Shown: positions 42,528-60,018, counted from the stretch's first letter. The stretch is DNA of 64,000 bases from Candidatus Poribacteria bacterium (GCA_965116925.1 OZ220744.1:2720001-2784000); one strand, 5' to 3'. The notes: a model not told the origin generated them from the letters alone. Numbers and translations: made by a program.

Positions 42528-45500
42528 TTAATCCGCTGGTGCGGGTTGAGCAGCCAGACCGCCAACGCCCGGAGCGTCTTCCGTCTCGCTCTCTTGCCGT
42601 CCACGCTCATGGAACTCACCGCGGATATCAGCACTGAACGTCCGCCAAATTAGTAGCTGTTTTCGGACAAGGTTCAAGAAACGACGGTTGACGCGCTTCC
42701 ATGAAGCAATCTCCCCGCTCTCACGGTGGACATCGAGGTGAATCTTATACAACTCTTCCTCTTCTCCGCCGACCGGTGAGGTGACAAGCCGAATGGATTG
42801 GCTGACTCCGAGATCGTAGGGGGCGAGCCACACCATCATGCTGATGTTGTAGGCTTCTTCCTCTTCCTCTTTCCCTTCCACTACCACAGGCGTTCGACCG
42901 AAGGCGACCTGATCCGTGTAGAAATCGCTTGCGGATTCGTCGGCGTGTGCTTCAAAGTAATCGCGCATAAAGATATTTAAGCCGAGCGATTCTTCTGCCA
43001 ACACGGTGAAGGGGAGATCGAAGTGCCACTCGTCGCCTTCAGGCTCCGGCAGCTGCCATTTCCGTTCGATGTCAGGCACCGCCATGCGACTGGCTTTAAT
43101 TGCAGGATACAGTGTACTTCCAATCACGACAATCATTACAATAATGGTTGCTACCACTGTTGACATTGACGAGTAGTTGAGGGTCAATCCAGCAAGCAAG
43201 CCAAAGTTGACAAGGACGGTTGCGACTGCCTGGCCGAGCAGGTAACCGAGCACAGCACCGACAATCGCATACACACACGCTTCCGCGAGGAACAGGAAGG
43301 CGATATGCACGGGAGCGAGTCCGACAGAACTGTAGATGCCGATTTCACGGACCCGTTCGTAGACCGCACCGAGCATCGTGTTCAGAACGATCAGCGACGC
43401 AATTAAAATTGGTATGAATAGGTTACCCATACCGGAGAAAGAGGTCATTCCGATGGAACTGTAGAGATAGGTGTCCCGATCTTTTCCAACAAAGAAGTCG
43501 AGTGCGATTCGGTTCATCAGCGGTGCCATGATCAGGTCCAGTTTATCTGCCGCACTGAAGATTGTTGGATCGCCGGGCTGTGCTTCCATGTTGACAGCGA
43601 CGGAGCGTAACGTCCCGCCCTGATTCATGACTACATCATACGGCAGGATAGCCACAGCATCGGGAGGTAGATGAATATATTTCTCCAACTCTCCTTCCAT
43701 GGCTTGGTTCTGTCCTTGGGCGCCACCGCCTCGCGCTTCCTGCTGCTGCATCAGTTGGTAGTCAACAGGTGTCAGTTCTTCGCCATCATTATCCTGTAAG
43801 TCTTTGAAGCCGATACCGAGAACACCCGTAACGGTGAAGTCTGCGCCGTATACGGATACAGTCGCTTTGCCCATATCGGCTTCGGTGATGCCGAGCAGAT
43901 CCGCCATACCTTTGGGGAGGACACAAGCATAGGGCCATTGTGTGGGCCACTCTGCTTCATCGTCGGGGTGATACCATCGACCATACTGGAGGTAACGGTC
44001 AATTCCTGTTACACCGGGTTCATCTTGACTCATCCCGACCAACATGGTAGCAGAGTAGGTCTTTGGCTGACCGGTGGTAGTATTGACAGGCGGTACAGGA
44101 TCTTGCAGGTTGGGGGTGCGCTCTAGCTGCACAAACGACTGATCGCCGGTGCCCGCGGACTGATACCATGCGCGTGGCGCGACGATGTTATGCACTCGGA
44201 GGACGGATTCTTCGCCCAGCTCAATCAACGATCCCTCCTGACGTAATTGGGCTATGATTGCTTCAACCTCTACGTCAGCCTGCTCTGCCGATTTACCTTG
44301 CTGCCCCAGTCGTTTCTTCAGCAGTAACCGTAGATCTTTTTCAGGGATTTGTGTTTTCCGCAGATCATTTGTGAGTGAGTTGACAACAGGTTCTTCGAGC
44401 GGATTCCAATACTGATCTCGGATAAGCATCCCGGTGTAGCGCGGCGTTACGGAAGGTAGGTTGGTGCTGTTGGGATGCATAAAGGTACGCACCGATGTAA
44501 AGGAGATGACCGTAAAGGTGAGAATAACCAGTGTGCTACAGGTGAGGATGGTGCGGCCCTTCCGCTTACGCATATTGGAAATACCTAGACTGAAAGCGGC
44601 AGCGGAGGCAGACAAGCGTCCCACGTCTGCCTTGTACACTTTTGATCCCTCCTGCTTAATTTTTTCCACCTGTTCTTCAAATTTCCGGACGATGATGCTG
44701 ATCACAATTGCCGTCAACGCAAGGACGACGAACGCAATCAGGATGATAACCGGCGTCGTGGTAATCTGGAATGCGGGGTGCACCTGCGCCAAGAAGAAAA
44801 AGACAACGAGGAAGATCGCAGCTGTCCCCATAATCTGTTTTTGGACGGTTGGGAAAGCGAATATCAACCGTTCCATGAAGTAGGCGAACGGGATCAGGAG
44901 GGCGAGATAGAACATCACACCATTGACTACGTCATTGCCGGTTTTCTTCACATCGGGGTAGGCGCGGGATTCGTATCCCCACGCGGCGCGGGCAAGTTTG
45001 AGTGCCTGCTGATAGTCTTTTTGGGTGAGGGCAGCCTCCGCCTGATTTAGATGTTCGTTGGCGAATTGGTGGAGCTGATCAAGCCGATCGCTGCTGATGC
45101 CGAACCGTTTATACAGACTCGCCCGGTTCTCATCGAGCCACCACATATCGCGGACGACAACGTATGGGGTTACGCGAATGCTACCGTTCTCGCGGACAAC
45201 AAACCCTTCTCCGGTATAGAGTGTCGGGTTCTTCGTTCCGCTTTTACTCGCCTTGATCAATAGTAACCGTTTGCCGATTTGTCCATACGCCATGCCGACC
45301 TTGATACGACTGTTAGGCTCCGAATAAACGAGCGCGATAGGCTCAGTTGCCGAGATACCTTCCTGCTGCCACGGCTTCGATACGCCATACTTTTCTGGTG
45401 GGCTATCGCTTGCGGCATCAAAAACTTCCAGTTCACGAAGCGTTCGTAGGTATCGCTGATCCACAAGATCGTAGATAGTGGTAGACACACAGGGGAAAAC

Positions 45501-48500
45501 CACGATACGGCATCCACGACGGTGGGTGTTAATCGGTATCAGGTTCGGCAAGAGTTTCGCGCCGAAGTTACCGAGATCCGGTGCGTAGACAATATCACCG
45601 GAATCCGGGTGGAGGATATAAGCTTCCACCTCTTGCGTTCCTTTGAGGCGGATGGTGGCACGCCCCTCCATCGCAAGTCCTGCAACCTCAAAGTTTCCTT
45701 TATTGTCGCCCATTGCAATGAGATCGCCTCGCACCCCCATCATGGTTTTGTGCTGATTCCGCAAAGCGAGAATAGGATACTCCACCGGTTTGTTTGGTAG
45801 CGCGCTCTCACGGGCATCATACTCGACGACATCACCAAACAGGTTGCAGTAGAAGTTCCCCACCCGTGCTGCGGTGGGCATCTTCGGATCGCGCATCGCT
45901 TGGATAAGAATAGCGGCAAGGGTTTTCGCCTGTTTATGCAAGGCACCATCGTGGCTCAAATCCATTCGGTCAATTGTGTCGAGCGGGGTATCGGTCAACA
46001 CGCGTGCATCGTCGATGGTGGCAAAAGCAATTCCGGTAAAGCCGGTCAGGGTTGCCACTTCGCTATCAAAGGCTATCTTACCAGGTATGTAGGTCTTCCA
46101 GATCTTACCGCCACTAGCAGAGATTGCGTTGACAAAGTTGGTCTCACCACCAAACCCGGCGATATCAATGAGTGCCTTAATATCATCGACTTCCTCTTGT
46201 GTAAATTCGGACGGGTCCTCGTGGCGCAGGGCAAGCATCGCATCCATTCGATTGAGCAGGCGCACCTTATTCTTCCGGTTCTTCCGCGCCTCCCGGATAT
46301 CGTTTCGGATGAATCGTTCGACTTCCTTACGGATATAGTCCATATCCTTGAGCATATCCTCGGAAGGTTCGCCCTGATTTTTCATCTGCTCAAACTGCAT
46401 CTTCATCAATCGAGACACTCCGGATAGCCCGACCAACGTTGCGTAATGCTCAGTAACTAAGCTTTCAAGGCTCTTGCCCTCGATGGCTTTTTTCGGATCG
46501 ATGCCAGCTGCAACTGTCCATTGAGTATTCATCACCGCTTGGCGGATCTGATCGTCGGTGAAGGTCCATAGTTTCTGGATACGTTCACCGAAATCGGCAC
46601 CCTCTGCGTATTCGGCAAGTTTATTTCCGATGGAAGCGAACTCGCGGCGGAGGACAAATTCGGGCTGCTGGTCATAGAACCACCCTTTGTTGAATACGCC
46701 AAACTGGTCGTTCTGGCTGGAGAGGTCAATGGCGATAAAGAGAGAGGTGTAGTAACGATTAAAGATGTCTTGCAGTGCAATCGCTTGTTCGATGGAACGT
46801 ATCTTCCGTGTGTATTCTGACTCGCTGATACGTGCAATTTTCTCGACCCGTTTTTGTAGATTGCGAAATCGAGCGTTCCGCATCGTGAGCAGGTTATCAC
46901 GGAGGAGAATCTTGGTCTCCTCGTCCGGATCGCGGTCAAGACGGTCAAGGATGTTCAGCAGGTTCTGGAGTTCGACAATATCGTTTTTGGCTCGCCGCTT
47001 CACCATCTCTAGTAGATGCTGTTCTTCAAGCTGACCGAAGATCTGCTCTCGGACAGCCATCGCTCGGTCTGCTGCATCTTCAGGGAGATAGTGGCGGAGG
47101 ACGAGTGCCTCTTCGGCGAGGTAGGGACGGTTCAGCGACGCATGGCGTTCAAGGAGGGATTCAATTCGATAGCGTTCAAGGCGAGCGTTCCGCATCGCGG
47201 TTTCGAGGATACTCTGTTTATCTCTGGTCAGGTCATCAACCAAAATTTGGTCTAATTCTCGTGAGGTTGCTGTTCCCGTTGTCGGGTCCATCATCTCCAA
47301 CTTCTGGTGGAGTTGAGTCTGAACAATCTCAAACTGCTTGAGGGTTGCCTCATTGAGGAAGAGTTCTAGCTCATCCGCAAAGCCTGCCGGGAGGTGATCC
47401 GGTTTAGAACTTAACTGGGTGATAGCGTTTTTGATACTATCCTCTGCATCGCTGCTTGCGGGAATATTGGCGAGCGTTCGTTCAAGGAGTTGCCGTTCTT
47501 CTTCGATGTAGGCTTCCAGAGATTTTTCAGCGCGGTTGACAACCCTACGAGCTGACTTGATTCGTTCCAAACCCTTAAAGTCAAGATGGCGGTCTAACAA
47601 CTTCTCTTGGGCATACTGGAGGGTGAATTTCCGTGGATCTTCAAATTCCCAGTCCTGCAAATTGTCCGAGAGTCGCTGAACATCTACCTCCAGATACGAC
47701 GGTAGGTCACTCGGTACTGGTAGATAATAACGTCCCCCCTCCCGTTCCTTCGGTACGAGATAGCTGCTGTCTGGCGTTTGTACATATTTCCCTTCAATCC
47801 GTTCTGCCCTTAAATCCGCTTCCAATTTATCTATTGCCCAAACGTCCAACCGAGCCATCGGTAGGGCAATCTGTTCAATCAATTCACGTTGGGTGTCACG
47901 GCATTCAGCTAATGCTTGTGTGCGCAGTTTTAGGGTACGGTTAAGCATTGAACGCAGGAATTGAGTGGTCTGCAGCGCGTCTTTCTTGAACTTCGCGAGG
48001 TTGACCTCTAGTCGTGATTTTTCCTCTTCGGTGAATCCTTGCTTCTCCCGTTTCTTGGTTGTTTCGAGTTTCTTCTTCTCTTTCTCTTTTGCGTCACGCT
48101 GGGCGTTACGCAACGAGTCAATGTTGCCTTTGGTTGTCTGTAGATCGGAGAGGGTTGTTGCTAGGGAGGCGACATCTGCTTTGAGTTCGTGGACATCGTG
48201 GAAGAAGTTAGGGGGTAAATCTACCAGCACATTTCGGTCGATCGATAGCAGTAGCTTACGTCCCAGTTCCTCAAACTCAAAGAGGTCGGTACTTAAACCG
48301 CGACGCAGCCCGCGCATTGTCGGTGTGCCGGGAGAATCCGCTTCTCGTCCGACGATATCTTGACCAATCCCCTCCATAAATGCGCGCATACCCCCCAGTC
48401 CTTGGAAGTGGGCATCTGTTGCGACAAACAGAAGGGAACGCCCCGGTCGAAATTCCTCTTGGCTGAAGATACGAGCAAGCTCCAACAGAGTGGCAATGCC

Positions 48501-49949
48501 GCCGGTGGGATCGGCACCGGGTGCCATTGCGGGAACGACAGACATTGAGTCGTAATAGCCGGTGATAACAACCAATTCGTCCTTTAGGGTTGGGTCGCCA
48601 CCTTCAAGGAAACCACGAATGTTCTGCCCAATACGCTGTTCCCAAGTAATGGTACTAGTGAGACGTGCGTAAATTTTCTGAGGAGACGATTCCGATTGTG
48701 CTTCCCCTTCGCCAAGCATAGCCAAGAGTTCGTCGGCGTCCTCTTTAGCAATCCAGAAGCGGGGGATGTTGGCAGGGACCGTCAGGAATTTGTTCTCAGC
48801 CTCACCGCGGATAGTTGTCTCCGGCTCGATGAAGAGGACAGCTTTCGCGCCAAGCATGGCGGCGTTAATCCATTTGGTACTAGAGTTGAAGTCAACCAGT
48901 ACAACGCTGCCTTGGGGGATAAAGATGCTGGATTCATAGGCGGCAACAAACTCGCCTTCTTCGTCAATTTGCCCATTGTTGTTGTTATCAATACCATCAG
49001 TTGCATCGCCGGGGATTTCGTCTACGAAGGCGTCACCATCGTTGTCGATGCCGTCGGTATCCCATTGCAAGATCTCAGTTAGTGGGGGAATCTCACCGTA
49101 TTCGTCGATCTGTCCGTCTTCATTGTTGTCAATACCATCTTGCGTCTTTTGGAGATGGCCGTTAAGCACATCGTCAGTGATGCTGCCGACACCGATACGG
49201 AAACGGTGGGCGAGGTCTTCCAAAGTATCGCCAGGTTCAACTTTGTGCCAGAAACCGCCGATATCTTTGCCGTTGAACGAGGAGAGTTCCCCACTTCCCC
49301 CATAAAAGAGGGGCGCGGTCAGTCCACCGGTGGGAATAAAGAGCGAGTTGCCTTCGACCAGCACTAACTCGCCCGGTTCGTCGATTTCACCATCATCATC
49401 GTTATCGCTGCCATCGGTTGCTTGGTCACGGAGGTATTGGTTATGCGGGTCAGCCAAGATAGCTTGTGGGTCAACTTGATAGGATTTAGCAATTCCGTCA
49501 AAGGTTTCGCCTTGAACGACTACATGCGAGACACCGTTGGGGAGGAAGGAGGTGCGAACAAGGTTGGGCCAGATTGACCAGATTCGGTAAGTCTTCAGAA
49601 GCGTTTGATCTTCGGAAAGAATTTCTACCTTTCCATCACCGTGATCTATTGGAACAGAAACGGGAAACTCACGGCTCTCAACGTTTTGTAAGCCGATCTC
49701 GACAAATTGGTCAAAGATGTACTTGCTGCCTGAAGCGGCTTCATCGTAACCGGTGACGCGGGTGGGCAGATTGGAGAGTCGAGCGATGTCTTTTCGCATT
49801 CGGCCGATATCGACTTTGTCACTGATTTTGACTGCAACCTCCGAAAGCCCGACAGACAGCTGTTCGTCAACAGCGAAACCGCCGTGTGGAGATAGTAGCG
49901 CGAGAATGCAGAGCCATAGACTGATGTAATAATATCTCTTGATGATCAT
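42528..49949 (-). CDS. Giant (~2473 aa) membrane protein: signal peptide, 2 LysM, acidic Ca-binding-like repeats, degenerate M28 domain with long helical insertions, TM bundle, MacB/FtsX-like permease
   Basis: LysM motifs HVVVQGETFDGIA and HKVEPGDTLEDLA. DG.DN..DG.IDE x4. M28-like NI.G..G, YYDS, GAD, LLELAR. FtsX-type R..RT.LT and ERVREIGIYSSVG. Start reassigned to ATG 49949 (GGAGG RBS). Confidence 0.85.
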   Translation of the reverse strand: MIIKRYYYISLWLCILALLSPHGGFAVDEQLSVGLSEVAVKISDKVDIGRMRKDIARLSNLPTRVTGYDEAASGSKYIFDQFVEIGLQNVESREFPVSVPIDHGDGKVEILSEDQTLLKTYRIWSIWPNLVRTSFLPNGVSHVVVQGETFDGIAKSYQVDPQAILADPHNQYLRDQATDGSDNDDDGEIDEPGELVLVEGNSLFIPTGGLTAPLFYGGSGELSSFNGKDIGGFWHKVEPGDTLEDLAHRFRIGVGSITDDVLNGHLQKTQDGIDNNEDGQIDEYGEIPPLTEILQWDTDGIDNDGDAFVDEIPGDATDGIDNNNNGQIDEEGEFVAAYESSIFIPQGSVVLVDFNSSTKWINAAMLGAKAVLFIEPETTIRGEAENKFLTVPANIPRFWIAKEDADELLAMLGEGEAQSESSPQKIYARLTSTITWEQRIGQNIRGFLEGGDPTLKDELVVITGYYDSMSVVPAMAPGADPTGGIATLLELARIFSQEEFRPGRSLLFVATDAHFQGLGGMRAFMEGIGQDIVGREADSPGTPTMRGLRRGLSTDLFEFEELGRKLLLSIDRNVLVDLPPNFFHDVHELKADVASLATTLSDLQTTKGNIDSLRNAQRDAKEKEKKKLETTKKREKQGFTEEEKSRLEVNLAKFKKDALQTTQFLRSMLNRTLKLRTQALAECRDTQRELIEQIALPMARLDVWAIDKLEADLRAERIEGKYVQTPDSSYLVPKEREGGRYYLPVPSDLPSYLEVDVQRLSDNLQDWEFEDPRKFTLQYAQEKLLDRHLDFKGLERIKSARRVVNRAEKSLEAYIEEERQLLERTLANIPASSDAEDSIKNAITQLSSKPDHLPAGFADELELFLNEATLKQFEIVQTQLHQKLEMMDPTTGTATSRELDQILVDDLTRDKQSILETAMRNARLERYRIESLLERHASLNRPYLAEEALVLRHYLPEDAADRAMAVREQIFGQLEEQHLLEMVKRRAKNDIVELQNLLNILDRLDRDPDEETKILLRDNLLTMRNARFRNLQKRVEKIARISESEYTRKIRSIEQAIALQDIFNRYYTSLFIAIDLSSQNDQFGVFNKGWFYDQQPEFVLRREFASIGNKLAEYAEGADFGERIQKLWTFTDDQIRQAVMNTQWTVAAGIDPKKAIEGKSLESLVTEHYATLVGLSGVSRLMKMQFEQMKNQGEPSEDMLKDMDYIRKEVERFIRNDIREARKNRKNKVRLLNRMDAMLALRHEDPSEFTQEEVDDIKALIDIAGFGGETNFVNAISASGGKIWKTYIPGKIAFDSEVATLTGFTGIAFATIDDARVLTDTPLDTIDRMDLSHDGALHKQAKTLAAILIQAMRDPKMPTAARVGNFYCNLFGDVVEYDARESALPNKPVEYPILALRNQHKTMMGVRGDLIAMGDNKGNFEVAGLAMEGRATIRLKGTQEVEAYILHPDSGDIVYAPDLGNFGAKLLPNLIPINTHRRGCRIVVFPCVSTTIYDLVDQRYLRTLRELEVFDAASDSPPEKYGVSKPWQQEGISATEPIALVYSEPNSRIKVGMAYGQIGKRLLLIKASKSGTKNPTLYTGEGFVVRENGSIRVTPYVVVRDMWWLDENRASLYKRFGISSDRLDQLHQFANEHLNQAEAALTQKDYQQALKLARAAWGYESRAYPDVKKTGNDVVNGVMFYLALLIPFAYFMERLIFAFPTVQKQIMGTAAIFLVVFFFLAQVHPAFQITTTPVIILIAFVVLALTAIVISIIVRKFEEQVEKIKQEGSKVYKADVGRLSASAAAFSLGISNMRKRKGRTILTCSTLVILTFTVISFTSVRTFMHPNSTNLPSVTPRYTGMLIRDQYWNPLEEPVVNSLTNDLRKTQIPEKDLRLLLKKRLGQQGKSAEQADVEVEAIIAQLRQEGSLIELGEESVLRVHNIVAPRAWYQSAGTGDQSFVQLERTPNLQDPVPPVNTTTGQPKTYSATMLVGMSQDEPGVTGIDRYLQYGRWYHPDDEAEWPTQWPYACVLPKGMADLLGITEADMGKATVSVYGADFTVTGVLGIGFKDLQDNDGEELTPVDYQLMQQQEARGGGAQGQNQAMEGELEKYIHLPPDAVAILPYDVVMNQGGTLRSVAVNMEAQPGDPTIFSAADKLDLIMAPLMNRIALDFFVGKDRDTYLYSSIGMTSFSGMGNLFIPILIASLIVLNTMLGAVYERVREIGIYSSVGLAPVHIAFLFLAEACVYAIVGAVLGYLLGQAVATVLVNFGLLAGLTLNYSSMSTVVATIIVMIVVIGSTLYPAIKASRMAVPDIERKWQLPEPEGDEWHFDLPFTVLAEESLGLNIFMRDYFEAHADESASDFYTDQVAFGRTPVVVEGKEEEEEAYNISMMVWLAPYDLGVSQSIRLVTSPVGGEEEELYKIHLDVHRESGEIASWKRVNRRFLNLVRKQLLIWRTFSADIRGEFHERGRQESETEDAPGVGGLAAQPAPAD

Positions 49950-50017
49950 GATAATTCCTCCGATTTTTTTAATAGGCTGACCGGCGCATAGTATGCTATT
50001 GTGTTTAGATCTGTCAG

Positions 50018-50046
50018 ATTCTATCATAGTCACAAAGTCTTGTCAA
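50018..50046 (-). promoter_or_regulatory. Sigma70 promoter for the giant-protein operon
   Basis: Minus strand TTGACA-17 nt-TAGAAT. Confidence 0.72.
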
Positions 50047-51712: not shown

Positions 51713-53044
51713 CTATTGTTCCGCTTCCCCGCCATCAGGCGTGTCGCGGGAAGGAGGCGTCCCGCTTGCAGGACGGTCGGGAGGGTGCGGCTCAAATTGC
51801 CGAGCCGCGTCAGGATCAGACTCCCGCAGACGACGAAGCCCCTCCTCTGTGCCGTATTGGTCTATCAACCGTTGCGCCTTATCAGCAGGATTAGTTGATA
51901 GTCCTTCAATCAAATCCGATCCAATCCCCTGTGGTGTCAACTGTTTTTCGAGATCTGCTACACTTTGAGGGGATATAGGCTTGACTATATCGGGAAGATC
52001 TGATGGAGAGACAGGAACATCAGAGCGAACCGGGGCACCATTGGCATTTTCATTGATGCTTCCCTCAGAAAAAGGGTCTGTTGCTGAATAGTCCCCACCG
52101 AATTCTGTTTCGCTACTTCCTGACGGGAGGGTGCCCTCTAATTTTCGCATCCACCCCGGTAGTGCGTCTTCAGCGATATCAGACAGCAACCGCACCTTCA
52201 CCGGCGGTTTATCAGACTGCCCCGGTTTGGCAAAAGAGTTTAATATACGTCCTCTTTCCTTCATTGCCAGATTGTTGTCGACATTCTCTTTTGCTCTTGC
52301 CGATAACGACACATCAATTTCGCCCTTTGCTATCTTTGCCTCAATCTCCGCCATCGAGATCTTTAATTGTTTACTGAGCCAGACCTTTTTTATGAACTCT
52401 TGACGTTCATAGGGATCTTTTATCGCATAGTATTCATCGGGTATCGGTTCGCCTGCTACCTCAACACGCGCTGGGTGCTGGTCCTGCTCAAATGCTTCTA
52501 AAATCGGCGGGTCCAACTCTGACGGTAATATCGCGTCCCCTTCCTCGTACTGCCTGTCGTGCGGGACAATCACGTTATGCAGTTGACCGTCAGGAGTTAC
52601 GATTCGCTGGACAACCTGACCTTTATAGGGCGAGTTCTCAGCGAGCCTTTTTAGATGTTTCTTGACATAAGGGTTTTTTTTACCCGTTATCTCCCACGCT
52701 TGCAGTTCTATATCCTCACGATCAAAAGGCACAGGTGTATAGATATACGTCCCAGCTACCATATAGACATACTCATCGCCCCGTTTCCCCTTGTAATAGG
52801 GGTTCGTGGTATCCGCCGTTGTGCTTGGGTCTGGATTTCCGCCCCCATGGGTATGCCCTTCGGTTAGATGGTCATGCCCATCTGTTTCTGTATGTTTAAC
52901 AGAACGATTAAACGCCTGAGTGGACGATATAAAATGCTCGAATGCAACATGCTTCTGGTATTCTCTATAACCGATGTAGCAGACCAACAGTAACGCAATC
53001 AGACCCACCACAACGAGATAAGGAGTAAAACGGTAATTCAACAT
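51713..53044 (-). CDS. Hypothetical N-terminally membrane-anchored protein
   Basis: 443 aa; single N-terminal TM, His-rich linker, low-complexity tail; GAGGAGG RBS. Confidence 0.75.
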   Translation of the reverse strand: MLNYRFTPYLVVVGLIALLLVCYIGYREYQKHVAFEHFISSTQAFNRSVKHTETDGHDHLTEGHTHGGGNPDPSTTADTTNPYYKGKRGDEYVYMVAGTYIYTPVPFDREDIELQAWEITGKKNPYVKKHLKRLAENSPYKGQVVQRIVTPDGQLHNVIVPHDRQYEEGDAILPSELDPPILEAFEQDQHPARVEVAGEPIPDEYYAIKDPYERQEFIKKVWLSKQLKISMAEIEAKIAKGEIDVSLSARAKENVDNNLAMKERGRILNSFAKPGQSDKPPVKVRLLSDIAEDALPGWMRKLEGTLPSGSSETEFGGDYSATDPFSEGSINENANGAPVRSDVPVSPSDLPDIVKPISPQSVADLEKQLTPQGIGSDLIEGLSTNPADKAQRLIDQYGTEEGLRRLRESDPDAARQFEPHPPDRPASGTPPSRDTPDGGEAEQ

Positions 53045-53122: not shown

Positions 53123-53497
53123 CTAACCTCCGCAGCTTGAATTGGAACACGTTACCGAATCAATGCGCCAATAATACCGCCCCCATTTTATACTATTCCA
53201 ATGGAAGTGTGTTAACTCACCAGTTATTAAGTGATAGGTGTTTGTTACATTCCAGCACTCCTCTCTGACGCGGGTTCGATGGATTGTGGTCGAACTTCCA
53301 CAATACGAGCAAGTGCCACTGATCGTATCCGATGACATATCTTTCCACTTGTATTTGTGACCAGACTCACTATACTCTAACCACCCTTGGTCAGCCTCAG
53401 CTCTCTCAGGTTGAAAACCAGCATATATCCCCAAACCAACTACCAATACCCCAACAATCAACAACGAAACTTTCAACTGTCCTTTTGCTGCAAACAT
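53123..53497 (-). CDS. 124-aa secreted Cys-containing protein
   Basis: Signal peptide ending AEA; CSYC and CSNSSC; RBS GGGAG. Confidence 0.7.
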   Translation of the reverse strand: MFAAKGQLKVSLLIVGVLVVGLGIYAGFQPERAEADQGWLEYSESGHKYKWKDMSSDTISGTCSYCGSSTTIHRTRVREECWNVTNTYHLITGELTHFHWNSIKWGRYYWRIDSVTCSNSSCGG

Positions 53498-53529
53498 GGT
53501 AAATCTCCCTATTACCATAGTTCCGGCCA

Positions 53530-53578
53530 AAAACAAAAAGGGGCTGCGCCCTCAAATCGCGCAGCCCCTTTTTGTTTT
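53530..53578 (-). terminator. Leader (attenuator) terminator upstream of 53497
   Basis: 20-bp perfect inverted repeat including the U-tract, 33 nt before the ATG. Confidence 0.85.
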
Positions 53579-53649
53579 AAGTTGAAACTAATAGTTTAAT
53601 AAGGGTATACTATAAACAATTGTTAGGTGTTCATCCTAACAATGGCGAA

Positions 53650-53720
53650 GCGACTCGAGGTCGTGTCTCGTTTTGCTTCAGGGGGCTTCGAGCTGGACCT
53701 CGGAGCTCCCACAACTACCC
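53650..53720 (-). ncRNA. Candidate cis-regulatory RNA motif, copy A
   Basis: GGG..GAGCT-loop-AGCTC..CCC-TGAAGC..CGAG-loop-CTCGAGTCGC; homologous to copies B and C. Confidence 0.65.
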
Positions 53721-53749
53721 ATTCTATACCATCTTGAAAAATCTGTCAA
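53721..53749 (-). promoter_or_regulatory. Sigma70 promoter directly upstream of RNA motif copy A
   Basis: TTGACA-17 nt-TAGAAT on the minus strand. Confidence 0.72.
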
Positions 53750-53785
53750 CACTTTTTTTCTTAAAATCAACAATTTGCTGAGATT

Positions 53786-55051
53786 ATGGCAAAACCTTTT
53801 CGCGTTGCCGCTATCGTAACCACCTTTTTTCCGAACAGTCATGCCGGGGTGATAGTTCCCAAATTCCTGCGTGGCTTTCCCACCGACGATGGACTGATTG
53901 CGCCGCGTACCCAGCTCGCGTCACTCTTCATTGACCAGATCCATCAAAATGATGTTGGGCGGCAGATCGCTCACGAATACGATATCCCCATCTACGAGAG
54001 CATTCGTGCCGCGCTCACGCTCGGCGGCGATAGTCTGGCTGTGGATGCGGTGCTGCTCATCGGTGAGCACGGGGACTACCCACGCTCTGTACTGGGTCAG
54101 GAGATGCTGCCGCGGCGATATTTCTTTGAGCAGATCTGCGGCGTTATTGCGGAGTCGGATCGCCCCATTCCTATCTACAACGACAAGCATCTGTCCTACC
54201 GTTGGGATGATGCTCACTGGATGTACACAACCGCCACGCAGCTGGACATACCGCTCTGGGCGGGATCGGCGTTGCCGGTGGGTTGGCGGTGCCCGAACTT
54301 TGAGCATCCGTTGGGCGCACCAATCGAGGAAGCGTTGTCCATCGGGTTTCACATGATTGAACGGTACGGTTTTCATGCGCTGGAAAGCCTACAGTGTCAG
54401 GTGGAACGGCGACAGGGAGGCGAAACGGGTGTCTGTGCGGTGCAATGTTTGTCCGGTGATGCGGTTTGGCGCGCTGCCGATGAGGGACGATGGTCGTTTG
54501 AACTTGCTAACCATGCCCTCGGTACGATTGAAGACGGGCCCAAATCCCTCGATCCGTCGCAGGTCGAAGATCCACACGTCTTCTTGATTGAGTATAGCGA
54601 TGGGTTGAAAGGTGCGGCGTTGATGCTTGGCGATAACGGCTATGTGCGGAAGTTCGCCTACGCAGCCAAGCGTGGAGAAGTCATTGATGCAATGGAATAC
54701 CACACCGATTCGGGGGCGACCCATGCGGTTTTCAGCTATATGGGGCTGAATATTGAGGACTTCTTCCTGAGCGGTGTCCCGCCCAGTCCGGTTGAGCGAA
54801 CCTATCTGACGACTGGCATCTTGGAGGCGGTGATGCGCTCCCACGGCAGCGGTGGCTCACAGATCGAAACCCCGCACTTGGCTATAGGTTATACGGCTAC
54901 TGAATCCCAACTTCGACGACCCACTAGCACTCGCCCAACCGGTGCGTCCCTTTCGGCGTGGGAGATGCCGGAGCCGGGTGCCACTCCCGCTGCGGATTTG
55001 ATTCCTATCGGGCGCGATGGGACAATTCGGGGGCGTCGGCGTTTCAACTAG
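53786..55051 (+). CDS. Hypothetical protein, Gfo/Idh/MocA oxidoreductase-like
   Basis: AVDAVLLIGEHGDYP, NDKHL, AGS.LP and YGFHALE motifs. Confidence 0.6.
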   Translation: MAKPFRVAAIVTTFFPNSHAGVIVPKFLRGFPTDDGLIAPRTQLASLFIDQIHQNDVGRQIAHEYDIPIYESIRAALTLGGDSLAVDAVLLIGEHGDYPRSVLGQEMLPRRYFFEQICGVIAESDRPIPIYNDKHLSYRWDDAHWMYTTATQLDIPLWAGSALPVGWRCPNFEHPLGAPIEEALSIGFHMIERYGFHALESLQCQVERRQGGETGVCAVQCLSGDAVWRAADEGRWSFELANHALGTIEDGPKSLDPSQVEDPHVFLIEYSDGLKGAALMLGDNGYVRKFAYAAKRGEVIDAMEYHTDSGATHAVFSYMGLNIEDFFLSGVPPSPVERTYLTTGILEAVMRSHGSGGSQIETPHLAIGYTATESQLRRPTSTRPTGASLSAWEMPEPGATPAADLIPIGRDGTIRGRRRFN

Positions 55052-55224
55052 GTTCTGTTGACATTTTATATTGATGCACCTACAACAGTATTTTGGGCAG
55101 GCACAAGCCCCCGATGAATCGGGATTAAGAAACCTGCCCCTACATTACATCGAATGACCCGAGCCAGCCCCGTCCACACTTTCTGATTGTATATTCGAGC
55201 GTTTCTGCTATTTATACACTCGAA

Positions 55225-55284
55225 GCGATTCGAGGACCCGCTCGGATCGTTTCACGGGGTCGGGAGGTGTCAGCTCCCAACCCC
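55225..55284 (-). ncRNA. Candidate RNA motif, copy C (orphan)
   Basis: GGGGTTGGGAG-CTGACAC-CTCCCGACCCC-GTGAAACGATCCGAG-CGGGTC-CTCGAATCGC. Confidence 0.6.
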
Positions 55285-55294
55285 ACCATTTTTT

Positions 55295-56002
55295 TCAAGG
55301 TTCAGCCCACCCGTTTTCACGTAACATCTCCAACAACAGGGTATAGCCCTGATCCTTCAATTCAGGGTTTTGGGCATACAACACTTGCACCGCTGGCGGC
55401 GCAGCATTGCCCATCTGCGATTTGACTTCTGCTAAAAAATCACGCTGATCCTCTGCAGATAACGTATTGAGATGATCGACAATCATCGGGATCGCTTGAT
55501 TCATCGTCTGCAGCACTCGCTTGCGGACCACCGCTGCATCTTCGAGCGCTGCTTCCGTTTTGGCTGCCATTTCCTCTAGCTCCGCAAGGGATTGCTCAAA
55601 AGCAGCCGTATCGGCTGCAGTAGACGCCGAAACCGATGCTTTGTCGGGTTCAACTTCGCTCACAATTGGATCTAACAAGCCATCCGTATCCGATACGAGT
55701 GGATCCACCGCTTCATCAATTGGACGATGCGAAACGCTATCCGTCGATTCGACCGGTGGCGTCGTGCGCTCGTTCAGGATTGCCCGCCGTTCCGATGGAT
55801 CCGGTAGCAGATAGACCCGCTCCGACTCGACCGACTTCGACGGGCGCACATAAGCGAAATATACCACCCACGAAATGATCAGCGTCAAAACTACGACAAT
55901 CCCTAACCCGATGAACAGTGGCGACCGAAGCTCTTTCAGATACTCCCGCCACGATCGCCAGCCCTTGCCTGTCCGATCTCGCCAGTCGTAAAAAATCGGC
56001 AT
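55295..56002 (-). CDS. Hypothetical single-TM protein with helical C-terminal domain
   Basis: 235 aa; TM near residues 29-51; RBS AAGGAGG. Confidence 0.72.
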   Translation of the reverse strand: MPIFYDWRDRTGKGWRSWREYLKELRSPLFIGLGIVVVLTLIISWVVYFAYVRPSKSVESERVYLLPDPSERRAILNERTTPPVESTDSVSHRPIDEAVDPLVSDTDGLLDPIVSEVEPDKASVSASTAADTAAFEQSLAELEEMAAKTEAALEDAAVVRKRVLQTMNQAIPMIVDHLNTLSAEDQRDFLAEVKSQMGNAAPPAVQVLYAQNPELKDQGYTLLLEMLRENGWAEP

Positions 56003-56020
56003 TTGAAACCTCCTTTAAGA

Positions 56021-56395
56021 CTATCCTGCACCCTGACGCTGCATGCACTCCCAATACTCCTGATCAGCGACAATGGCTTGAAGCATCGCCGCAGCCAAAG
56101 CCGCCTCCGCAGCCAAAAGAAAACCGAACGCAACCGCAATCGCAATCGGGTTTGCAGACGCGATCGCGGCAACTAAAGCGCCCTCCGCAGCAATGACCGC
56201 GACCAGTGCGGCTGCCTGCCATGCGAGCGCTACATTCAACGCATTGCGCTCCGATTGACAGACCTGTGCGATCGCTTCGACTGCCAAAAACGCCATAACA
56301 CATAACAGAATAACGCTGATTAACCGTAACAGGTTCCGATTCAACCTAAACGTAGGGACAGTGATTTGTGGTACGGGTAAAGCAAACGCAAACAT
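56021..56395 (-). CDS. 124-aa secreted Ala-rich hydrophobic hairpin protein
   Basis: Signal peptide ending AIA. Mature part has two long hydrophobic helices bracketed by two Cys. RBS GGGAG. Confidence 0.7.
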   Translation of the reverse strand: MFAFALPVPQITVPTFRLNRNLLRLISVILLCVMAFLAVEAIAQVCQSERNALNVALAWQAAALVAVIAAEGALVAAIASANPIAIAVAFGFLLAAEAALAAAMLQAIVADQEYWECMQRQGAG

Positions 56396-56431
56396 AACAA
56401 AATCTCCCAACCGCCACCGGAAGCCACAAAC

Positions 56432-56466
56432 AAAAAAAGGCTGCGTCGTCACGAATCGCGCAGCCC
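56432..56466 (-). terminator. Leader (attenuator) terminator upstream of 56395
   Basis: GGCTGCG...CGCAGCC-TTTTTTT on the minus strand. Confidence 0.8.
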
Positions 56467-56545
56467 TAAGAAGTTTGTTGCCAAGCCAGTTGGCGTGATA
56501 GGTTGTGGGTTGACCGTCGGCATATTTTCCGACGACCGAAATTGG

Positions 56546-56608
56546 GCGATTCGAGGATCTGCTCGGGTTGCTTCAGGGAGGTGCGGAGGTATCAGCTCCA
56601 AGTCTCCC
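56546..56608 (-). ncRNA. Candidate cis-regulatory RNA motif, copy B
   Basis: GGGAGACTTGGAG-CTGATAC-CTCCGCACCTCCC-TGAAGCAACCCGAG-CAGATC-CTCGAATCGC. Confidence 0.65.
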
Positions 56609-56622
56609 ACTTTATCTAAGGC

Positions 56623-56637: not shown

Positions 56638-56725
56638 AAAGTGACAATAATCGCACAAAGCCAGTCACCATCGAGCTTTCAACGCGAAATGTTAAAAAAG
56701 TCGTTGAAGTGATTAACCCAATTAT

Positions 56726-56773
56726 TAGCAACAGTTGCTAAGCAATAGTTGCTAACGTTAGCAACAGTTGCCA
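56726..56773. promoter_or_regulatory. Three tandem palindromes AGCAAYAGTTGCY, candidate enhancer-binding sites
   Basis: TAGCAACAGTTGCTA at 56726, AGCAATAGTTGCTA at 56741, TAGCAACAGTTGCCA at 56759. Confidence 0.65.
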
Positions 56774-57068
56774 ACCTTCTCGCAGACACCAACAGACTTA
56801 AAAAGCTGCGCGAAGTACACGGAGCATTTTATTATGACTTATCCCGACAAAAAGATAGGGAGTTATTAAAGTATTTTAACCAACTCAAACCAGAAACAGT
56901 CAAAGGCAAGCGTTTCGTGAACACAAAAAAGCGGTATCATGCCAGGGAATGAAACGACGCTTTAACATCTGATTCACCTCCTTGAGGGAGGTTTTCAGCA
57001 GGAGCGAATTCAGGAGTAGTGGGAGCGTAGGTGGGTTCCACACTCCCACTGACCCTACTTTGCGAAGA

Positions 57069-60018
<2,950 letters not shown>

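Follow-up and report, generated by a model that had tools for sequence, protein, structure and literature searches.

A structured RNA leader family of sponge-symbiont Poribacteria with predicted competing terminator and antiterminator folds

Introduction

The Poribacteria are uncultivated symbionts of sponges in which, to our knowledge, gene regulation is almost wholly uncharted. Here we describe an RNA element from a Candidatus Poribacteria bacterium, found in a 64-kb stretch of its genome (GCA_965116925.1 OZ220744.1:2720001-2784000; whole genome 6.47 Mb, 99% complete) that we refer to as the window. An initial annotation had placed three copies of an unrecognised structured leader on the minus strand of the window and proposed that its second hairpin competes with an intrinsic terminator. 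Our analysis supports this central reading, which is strengthened by a family of related sequences, by covariation, by predicted folds and by association with genes. We therefore interpret the element, with a probability of about 0.72, as a cis-acting 5' leader that controls the downstream gene by transcription attenuation. The family is about 190 nucleotides (nt) long and occurs, among the genomes scanned, only in sponge-symbiont Poribacteria.

Results

Architecture of the leader

The typical unit begins with a promoter of the form TTGACA-N17-TAnnAT, followed by a 12-bp hairpin with one or two mismatches (H1), one unpaired base and a second hairpin (H2). H2 is built from GAAGC, a 4x4 internal loop (AAAA opposite AAUC), CGAG, a variable loop of 6-7 nt, CUCG and GCUUC. 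Behind it come a third hairpin with a variable top (H3), the single strand AUAGUAUA(A)CCCUUU, a small AU-rich hairpin region (H4), and a terminator of the form GGGGCUGC-GCGAUUYGRG...GCAGCCCC with a U-run. A Shine-Dalgarno (SD) sequence and a start codon lie about 25 nt further on.

Reading of the sequence, together with placement by a covariance model, found all three minus-strand copies at the sites first described. The model, R1, was built from six copies in this genome (alignment A3) and placed copy A at 53714-53646 (83.5 bits), copy B at 55288-55221 (69.7 bits) and copy C at 56610-56542 (59.4 bits). The window copies match R1 by construction, because they are three of its six source sequences; the independent support comes from a seventh copy in the same genome and from copies in other genomes. 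H1, H2 and a variable third hairpin are all present. The parts of the three copies are as follows.

53721..53749, minus strand: copy A promoter, TTGACA, 17-nt spacer, TAGAAT; 11 of 12 consensus positions
53681..53710, minus strand: copy A H1, GGGAGCUCCGAG, loop GUCCAG, CUCGAAGCCCCC
53647..53679, minus strand: copy A H2, GAAGC / AAAA / CGAG, loop, CUCG / AGUC / GCUUC; candidate sensor and anti-antiterminator
53660-53650, minus strand: copy A putative antiterminator strand CCTCGAGTCGC, within the H2 3' strand
53619..53643, minus strand: copy A H3 with variable top, from folding; 5 of 9 pairs changed on both sides across the family
53601..53613, minus strand: copy A conserved segment AUAGUAUACCCUU, putative second antiterminator strand, partner AAAGGGGCUGC
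53529..53568, minus strand: copy A intrinsic terminator, GGGGCUGCGC, loop GAUUUGAGG, GCGCAGCCCC, then a U-run (53539-53529)
53560-53550, minus strand: copy A terminator bases GCGATTTGAGG, complementary to the H2 3' strand
53509-53504, minus strand: copy A SD sequence GGGAGA, with the ATG at 53497
55221..55288, minus strand: copy B, an orphan H1-H2 core, 7 nt past the stop codon of the gene for P0004 (listed below)
56538..56610, minus strand: copy C core, with a two-part H1 (56608-56576) and an H2 (56574-56538) that has a CCAAU bulge in its outer stem
56432..56466, minus strand: copy C terminator, GGGCUGCG ... CGCAGCC, then U7 (U-run 56438-56432)
56459-56452, minus strand: copy C terminator bases GCGAUUCG, complementary to 56553-56546

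The copies are not equally complete. A terminator stands before the ATG at the copies at 53720 and 56608 but not at the middle copy at 55284, which was not confirmed as a leader: reading of the locus found neither a terminator nor a downstream minus-strand gene, and the copy faces a convergent gene. The promoter of copy A is strong; that of copy C is weak, agreeing with the consensus at 9 of 12 positions, and the start it implies would lie within H1. The TTGACA-N17-TAnnAT arrangement precedes most related copies.

Conservation and covariation

Full-length leaders were compared in alignment A5, which holds 67 of the 79 distinct units in which a script found a terminator. The 12 left out are the H3-less L038, L047, L066, L069, L070 and L077, together with L072, L019, L082, L083, L084 and L085; L011, L037, copy B, L074 and L079 had been dropped earlier, the script having found no terminator in them. 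Over H1, H2, H3 and the terminator, 92.0% of the cells in A5 were paired, and 19 of 39 pairs had changed on both sides. None of 500 shuffles reached the observed value, and registers slid out of place were paired in at most 46.5% of cells. The cores gave a similar result, with double-sided changes in 14 of 21 pairs among 83 distinct sequences (0 of 500 shuffles equal).

Covariation was confined to H1, H3 and the terminator. The claim that the stems differ in sequence with pairing kept is therefore true of H1, where 11 of 12 pairs had changed on both sides in the 83 cores, but not of H2, whose sequence is nearly invariant (97-98% of cells paired). The conserved TGAAR motif was also read differently at the outset: it is no linker, since GAAGC forms the 5' strand of the H2 outer stem and pairs with GCUUC in 97% of cells. 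A proposed 3-nt pairing between the loops was at chance level, the longest complementary run averaging 2.24 over 59 distinct loop pairs against 2.19 +/- 0.09 after shuffling (fraction at least as large as observed, 0.33). On its own, the 10-mer CTCGARTCGC is no rarer in the window than chance predicts (at most one mismatch allowed, 7 matches against 8.9 expected), and significance comes from the whole structure rather than from this motif.

Two further pairings were considered and dropped. A closing helix between GGGUA at the 5' end and UACCC was predicted for copy A and is not kept in other copies, and pairing of the H1 3' strand with the H2 5' strand (CUCG with CGAG) comes to merely 4 bp. 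Some units carry variations of the layout. An additional small hairpin, for example UUAGGUUU..AACCUAA, stands between the promoter and H1 in L158, L159 and L023 (genus g11) and in L057, L058, L062 and L076. L079 (G012:C30:11034-11100 and downstream) is rearranged, so that the H2 3' strand, UUCG and a perfect complement make a 17-bp hairpin; a separate terminator follows, with no open reading frame (ORF).

Competing folds of the H2 3' strand and the terminator

The terminator contains a segment complementary to the 3' arm of H2, as first noted, and this was found at copies A and C. At copy A, GCGATTTGAGG pairs with CCTCGAGTCGC over 11 bp, two of them G-U; at copy C, GCGATTCG (56459-56452) pairs with CGAATCGC (56553-56546). 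The same complementarity runs through the 67 aligned units: a 10-bp register between the H2 3' strand, CUCGAAUCGC, and the top of the terminator 5' arm with its loop is paired in 97.6% of cells, and in at most 50.1% when slid by 1-3 columns. The complementarity involves GCGAUUUGAG, and the leader partner of the terminator loop GAUUUGAG is CUCGAGUCGC. Where the terminator segment occurs as GAUUUGAG or as GAUUCGGG, both versions pair with the constant CUCGAAUC, differing in the wobble position. A G-to-A change in the core has a U as its partner in 4 of 5 cases. In the L028 class an AA insertion lengthens the long-range helix to 12 Watson-Crick pairs, and in L084, where a core G has become A, the H2 5' strand and the terminator, its two alternative partners, each show a matching C-to-U; a third change in L084 is uncompensated.

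Folding of transcripts that end before the terminator 3' arm yielded a second antiterminator helix, in which GUA..CCCUUU pairs with AAAGGG..UGC; it forms with at least 5 pairs in 53 of the 67 units. In these models the antiterminator is larger than first noted: it would sequester the whole terminator 5' arm and leave H3 as a side branch. This second helix would account for the greater part of the conserved single-stranded segment. For GUAUAAC and the H4 loop, conservation goes further than pairing can explain. An internal promoter at TAGTAT/TATAAC was considered and rejected, as there is no -35 element at a usable distance and a promoter scan found none. A sigma-dependent pause is conceivable.

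The calculated energies of the two states lie close together before the terminator is complete. For transcripts ending before the 3' arm, the difference between the antiterminator and the H2 state was -1.4 +/- 4.6 kcal/mol, with the antiterminator lower in 38 of 67 units; at copy C it was the lowest-energy fold (-45.5 vs -40.4 kcal/mol). In full-length transcripts, H2 plus terminator was the lower state in 64 of 67 units, with a mean advantage of 10.2 kcal/mol. The natural terminator 5' arm stabilised the upstream RNA beyond shuffled arms in 57 of 67.

An alternative design was folded in three units, L038 and L077, which have no H3, and L082, in which H3 is kept and H2 altered. In L038 and L077 the predicted antiterminator joins the top strand and loop of H2 to the terminator 5' arm (GAGUAGUCCCU with GGGGGCUGCUC); in L082 it takes the form GAGCAG with CUGCUC. 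This antiterminator, too, needs H2 to be opened. The H2 3' strand of L038 and L077 is invariant though unused by their antiterminator, which points to H2 itself as a recognised element. The candidate sensor domain is kept across platforms, the H2 sequence being invariant in the main design, the H3-less design and the g14 and B copies. Taken together, pairing, folding energies and the alternative design argue for the mutually exclusive terminator and antiterminator folds that had been proposed.

Distribution of the family

A search of the 6.47-Mb genome with R1 found seven copies. R1 matched 23 of 61 related genomes (this one included); in the same genus it matched 17 of the 19, each of which had 1-11 copies. 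A second model, R2, built from 90 cores, matched 28 of 151 genomes sampled across the phylum (17 of 19 in the same genus, 4 of 9 in g11, 5 of 57 in g14, 1 of 4 in g5 and 0 of 38 in g8); the genomes counted are related to one another, so these counts are not independent. The family suggested by the window copies was thus recovered in relatives, with more than 85 distinct copies in Poribacteria and between 0 and 12 per genome among congeners.

Outside the phylum we found no convincing member. An exact-pattern scan of one genome per species (185,579 species) returned 68 stretches, 66 of them titled Candidatus or uncultured Poribacteria. The other two, from metagenome-assembled genomes of Cyclobacteriaceae and Solibacteraceae, had no model match at E <= 1e-5 and scored at most 16.6 bits with R2. 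Eight pattern stretches in metagenome contigs from JGI scored at most 26.5 bits, mostly over H2 only, and were set down to chance.

The element had been said to fall outside the known riboswitch classes, and within Rfam 15 (4227 models, among them those of known riboswitches, T-box leaders and protein-binding leaders) this is so. No model reached its gathering score in any part of the window; when E values up to 10 were admitted, all matches stayed below threshold and most lay on the copy A terminator, the best with 30.6 bits against a cut-off of 90. With the 111-nt core five matches appeared, every one on the opposite strand and none above 12.6 bits.

Association with downstream genes

Had the copies been scattered at random relative to genes, they would have been better described as a plain repeat. 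Their placement is not random. Among 85 distinct units, a pattern search finds a terminator in 77; a few of the remaining 8 do possess a terminator, but its U-run is interrupted. In 64 of the 77, an SD sequence and an ORF of at least 40 aa follow, the start lying a median of 32 nt (range 27-92) past the U-run, and a promoter scan found no promoter between the leader and this ORF. The genes next to the window copies are listed here.

53123..53497, minus strand: P0001, a 124-aa Cys-rich predicted exported protein, behind copy A
51713..53044, minus strand: P0002, 443 aa, with a membrane anchor at the N-terminus; second gene in cassette A
56395-56021, minus strand: P0003, a 124-aa membrane protein, first gene of the copy C operon (55295..56395)
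56002-55295, minus strand: P0004, a 235-aa anchored protein, second gene of the copy C operon
53786-55051, plus strand: P0005, product of the gene convergent to copy B

None of P0001 to P0005 matched a Pfam family, and P0001 had no match in the Atlas. Paralogues of the P0002 N-terminus follow copies E and F of the same genome. Across units the genes behind the leader encode small proteins that carry a signal or anchor at the N-terminus, and the trait they have in common is predicted export.

One alternative is that the RNA of 190 nt ending at the terminator is itself the product, so that the units would be sibling trans-acting small RNAs (sRNAs) and the downstream genes incidental or served by leaky readthrough. 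The units do have a strong promoter and a strong terminator, and the full-length terminator fold is favoured in 64 of 67, so that short RNAs should be abundant; several near-identical copies occur per genome, and copy B and the g14 copies have no co-oriented gene downstream. This reading leaves unexplained, however, why 64 of 77 terminators are followed by an SD-linked ORF at a fixed short distance with no intervening promoter, and why the terminator 5' arm pairs with the upstream leader in two designs, which a plain sRNA terminator does not need. Genes for Hfq and CsrA were not found in the 99%-complete genome, with controls positive in 5 and 3 reference genomes, and of the g14 single copies, two of the four read are broken. 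A stand-alone sRNA gene would be expected at a position independent of its neighbour; here position follows the neighbour, with copy B and the g14 copies as exceptions. We regard the sRNA alternative as unlikely.

The proteins behind the leader resemble one another at their N-termini more than elsewhere. The N-terminal signal-anchor regions have a median identity of 57% over 28 aa and the mature parts a median of 24%; in 28 of 66 protein pairs the N-terminus is at least 50% identical and the remainder less than 25% (for example 53123-53497, L006, L008 and L002:4083-4361). To judge from such comparisons, promoter, leader, SD sequence and signal peptide appear to behave as one module before varied cargo. 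This joint movement before unrelated cargo is what would be expected of a constitutive module of the 5' untranslated region, in which H1 and H2 protect the mRNA 5' end or set translation, the terminator damps expression by a fixed fraction and nothing switches. H1 is indeed a stable 5'-terminal hairpin of variable sequence. A fixed damper does not explain the H2-terminator complementarity of 10-12 bp in 97.6% of cells, nor the second antiterminator helix, the near-zero energy gap and the independent second antiterminator design, and we rate it as slightly less probable than the sRNA alternative. A selfish repeat of the MITE (miniature inverted-repeat transposable element) or REP (repetitive extragenic palindromic) kind that contains hairpins by chance would suit an element present in many copies, their number varying from 0 to 12 among congeners, but is very improbable, since orientation and distance to the downstream start codon are fixed in the 85 units read, the element includes a promoter and an SD sequence, homology runs on into paralogous signal-peptide coding sequence, and no terminal inverted repeats or target duplications were noticed on reading the copies (no dedicated inverted-repeat search was run).

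A cassette consists of a leader, a small exported protein and an anchored protein of 235-450 aa, and cassettes form tandem arrays spaced 2-3.6 kb. Three arrays are as follows.

G009:C1:3622646-3629486, array in a related genome; ORFs of matching size lie upstream, in conserved order
G017:C2:4785498-4791502, array in a related genome; its flank includes a sigma-54 activator
4235509-4238030 (L002), array in the genome of the window; lies downstream of a cluster of TPR, TonB-dependent receptor, ExbB, TonB-like and ABC-permease genes

Among the genes flanking the arrays there is no evident candidate for an RNA-binding protein or regulator. The counterpart of copy B in a congener (L003:2838-2906) keeps its terminator and a following gene, and we therefore read copy B as the remnant of a leader internal to a cassette array.

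Two candidates for a translated leader were set aside. A leader peptide is unlikely, the ATG in the H4 region occurring in class I copies only and being absent from copy A and class II. The apparent conserved peptide ahead of the SD-linked ATG (MVTGRF and similar) most likely reflects conserved nucleotides in the ribosome-binding region, because class II copies have AUA there instead of AUG or GUG.

Other features of the window

Three adjacent palindromes TTAGCAAC-N-GTTGCTAA lie at 56720-56790, bordered on one side by the 3' end of katG (minus strand, 57069-59549) and on the other by the copy C promoter. Their exact 17-mer occurs only three times in the 6.47-Mb genome, and the group looks like an operator array for a DNA-binding protein. 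Between copy B and the end of the convergent gene, at 55085-55150 on the minus strand, there is a strong GC-rich hairpin (GGGGCAGG...CCUGCCC, inner CCCGAUUCAUCGGGG) with no U-run on either strand. Further along, at 42528-50033 on the minus strand, a 2501-aa ORF carries LysM, PA, peptidase M28, MacB periplasmic-core and FtsX permease domains.

Discussion

Proposed mechanism

From the pairings and energies described above we infer the following course of transcription. A sigma-70-type promoter would start the RNA, and H1 and H2 would fold first, with the terminator following about 100 nt later. The terminator 5' arm could alternatively pair with two upstream segments, GCGAUUYGRG with CUCGAAUCGC and AAAGGG..UGC with GUA..CCCUUU, leaving H3 as a side branch. 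Since this antiterminator excludes both H2 and the terminator hairpin, H2 would be an anti-antiterminator. As long as H2 holds, the terminator would form and transcription would end in the U-run, some 32 nt short of the start codon; opening of H2 would let the antiterminator form and the gene be transcribed. The unpaired AAUC of the H2 internal loop could serve as a natural toehold for the incoming GAUU. The outcome would probably be decided by an effector that binds and stabilises the invariant H2, stacked on H1, which would make the leader an OFF switch.

Given that the leader is a switch, its effector may be a small molecule or ion, making it a true riboswitch, and to this we give the first place, at less than even odds. 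An RNA-binding protein of unknown type is conceivable and somewhat less probable, and another RNA or a purely kinetic or physical signal comes last. No CAT_RBD domain (BglG-type) was found in this genome, with positive controls in 4 genomes; the search for an ANTAR domain also gave no match, and is uninformative because its control search matched nowhere. A more specific proposal, which we consider doubtful, is that H1-H2 or the antiterminator three-way junction forms the aptamer of a new class of riboswitch that only sponge-symbiont Poribacteria possess. The ligand of such a riboswitch would be a small symbiosis molecule, either supplied by the host or serving as a bacterial second messenger, and the riboswitch would control a secretome regulon that numbers up to a dozen cassettes in a genome.

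Several observations weigh against attenuation as we describe it. The shuffle control for the long-range helix was not significant (68 of 500), because H2 and this helix hardly vary, and support for the long-range pairing therefore consists, as far as alignments go, of conserved complementarity and a few compensations in related, non-independent sequences. Class II units favour the H2 state by about 4 kcal/mol before the 3' arm exists, so that classes may not share the same default state. Because GUAUAAC and the H4 loop are more conserved than pairing explains, the effector could bind the antiterminator three-way junction instead, giving an ON switch. Only 1 of 28 downstream proteins reaches a Pfam cut-off (a Tat-signal GMC oxidoreductase at copy D of this genome), and a metabolite riboswitch does not usually control genes that lack a common recognisable function. 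A co-oriented gene is, again, absent downstream of copy B and of the g14 copies. Finally, the public RNA data consist of contigs of relatives, from two metatranscriptome runs that cover 39 nt of the core, and hold no transcript ends; one such contig had a mean depth of 138 in RNA against 44 in the DNA run of the same study, and contig depths cannot rank genes.

If transcription attenuation is the correct interpretation, the leader identifies a regulon that is specific to this lineage and comprises up to 12 cassettes per genome; their small exported proteins, without family, are plausible symbiosis factors. It offers a compact, testable RNA element for finding the controlling signal, and its three expression-platform designs around one invariant hairpin constitute a natural mutational series. 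Should the effector be a small molecule, the leader would represent a new class of riboswitch whose sensor hairpin is unusually small, the cassettes being built by one constant module of promoter, leader and signal peptide before diverse small exported proteins. Should it be a protein, the leader could be used as bait for a new RNA-binding regulator.

Comparison with known systems

The SAM-I, FMN and lysine leaders, OFF riboswitches of Firmicutes, use terminator/antiterminator expression platforms. Like them, the Poribacteria leader has three mutually exclusive predicted helices, a sensor helix whose 3' strand is the antiterminator strand, an antiterminator that would sequester the terminator 5' arm, and a terminator placed shortly before the SD sequence. 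Unlike them, it has no known aptamer (0 of 4227 Rfam families), its sensor would be just one hairpin, about 33 nt long and with an internal loop, that stacks on a hairpin at the 5' end, and its genes encode small exported proteins without family rather than one metabolic pathway.

In the attenuators of the Bacillus pyr operon, the PyrR protein stabilises an anti-antiterminator. The tiers of anti-antiterminator, antiterminator and terminator are alike in the two systems, as is an invariant hairpin that a protein could read. The Poribacteria leader differs in matching no Rfam family, the PyrR binding site being among them, and in having no candidate protein.

The put RNAs of phage HK022 are two 5' stem-loops with one unpaired base between them that make RNA polymerase resistant to terminators. 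Two hairpins one nucleotide apart at the 5' end of the transcript, upstream of a terminator, are found here as well. In contrast to put, the Poribacteria hairpin is directly complementary to the terminator region, which argues for competition between RNA strands rather than modification of the polymerase. ANTAR target RNAs are dual hexaloop hairpins that overlap a terminator and have a conserved A1/G4 in the loop. They share with the leader tandem hairpins of which the second competes with the terminator, whereas the loops of the leader are of 5-7 nt, variable, and without the conserved A1/G4.

From the same phylum, an orphan structured RNA, the Poribacteria-1 motif, is said to have been reported by Weinberg et al. 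2017. The leader is set apart from it by the Rfam scan alone, which at E up to 10 gave no such match on the three copies. Accession RF03028 is RT-7 in Rfam and not this motif. A term search of the main text of Weinberg et al. 2017 does not find the word 'Poribacteria'; the supplement, which lay outside the search, could bear on novelty. A full-text literature search found nothing on Poribacteria-1, and Poribacteria combined with riboswitch yielded nothing relevant. As a mechanism, the interplay of terminator, antiterminator and anti-antiterminator is textbook knowledge; what is new, relative to Rfam 15 and the literature searched, is the RNA family.

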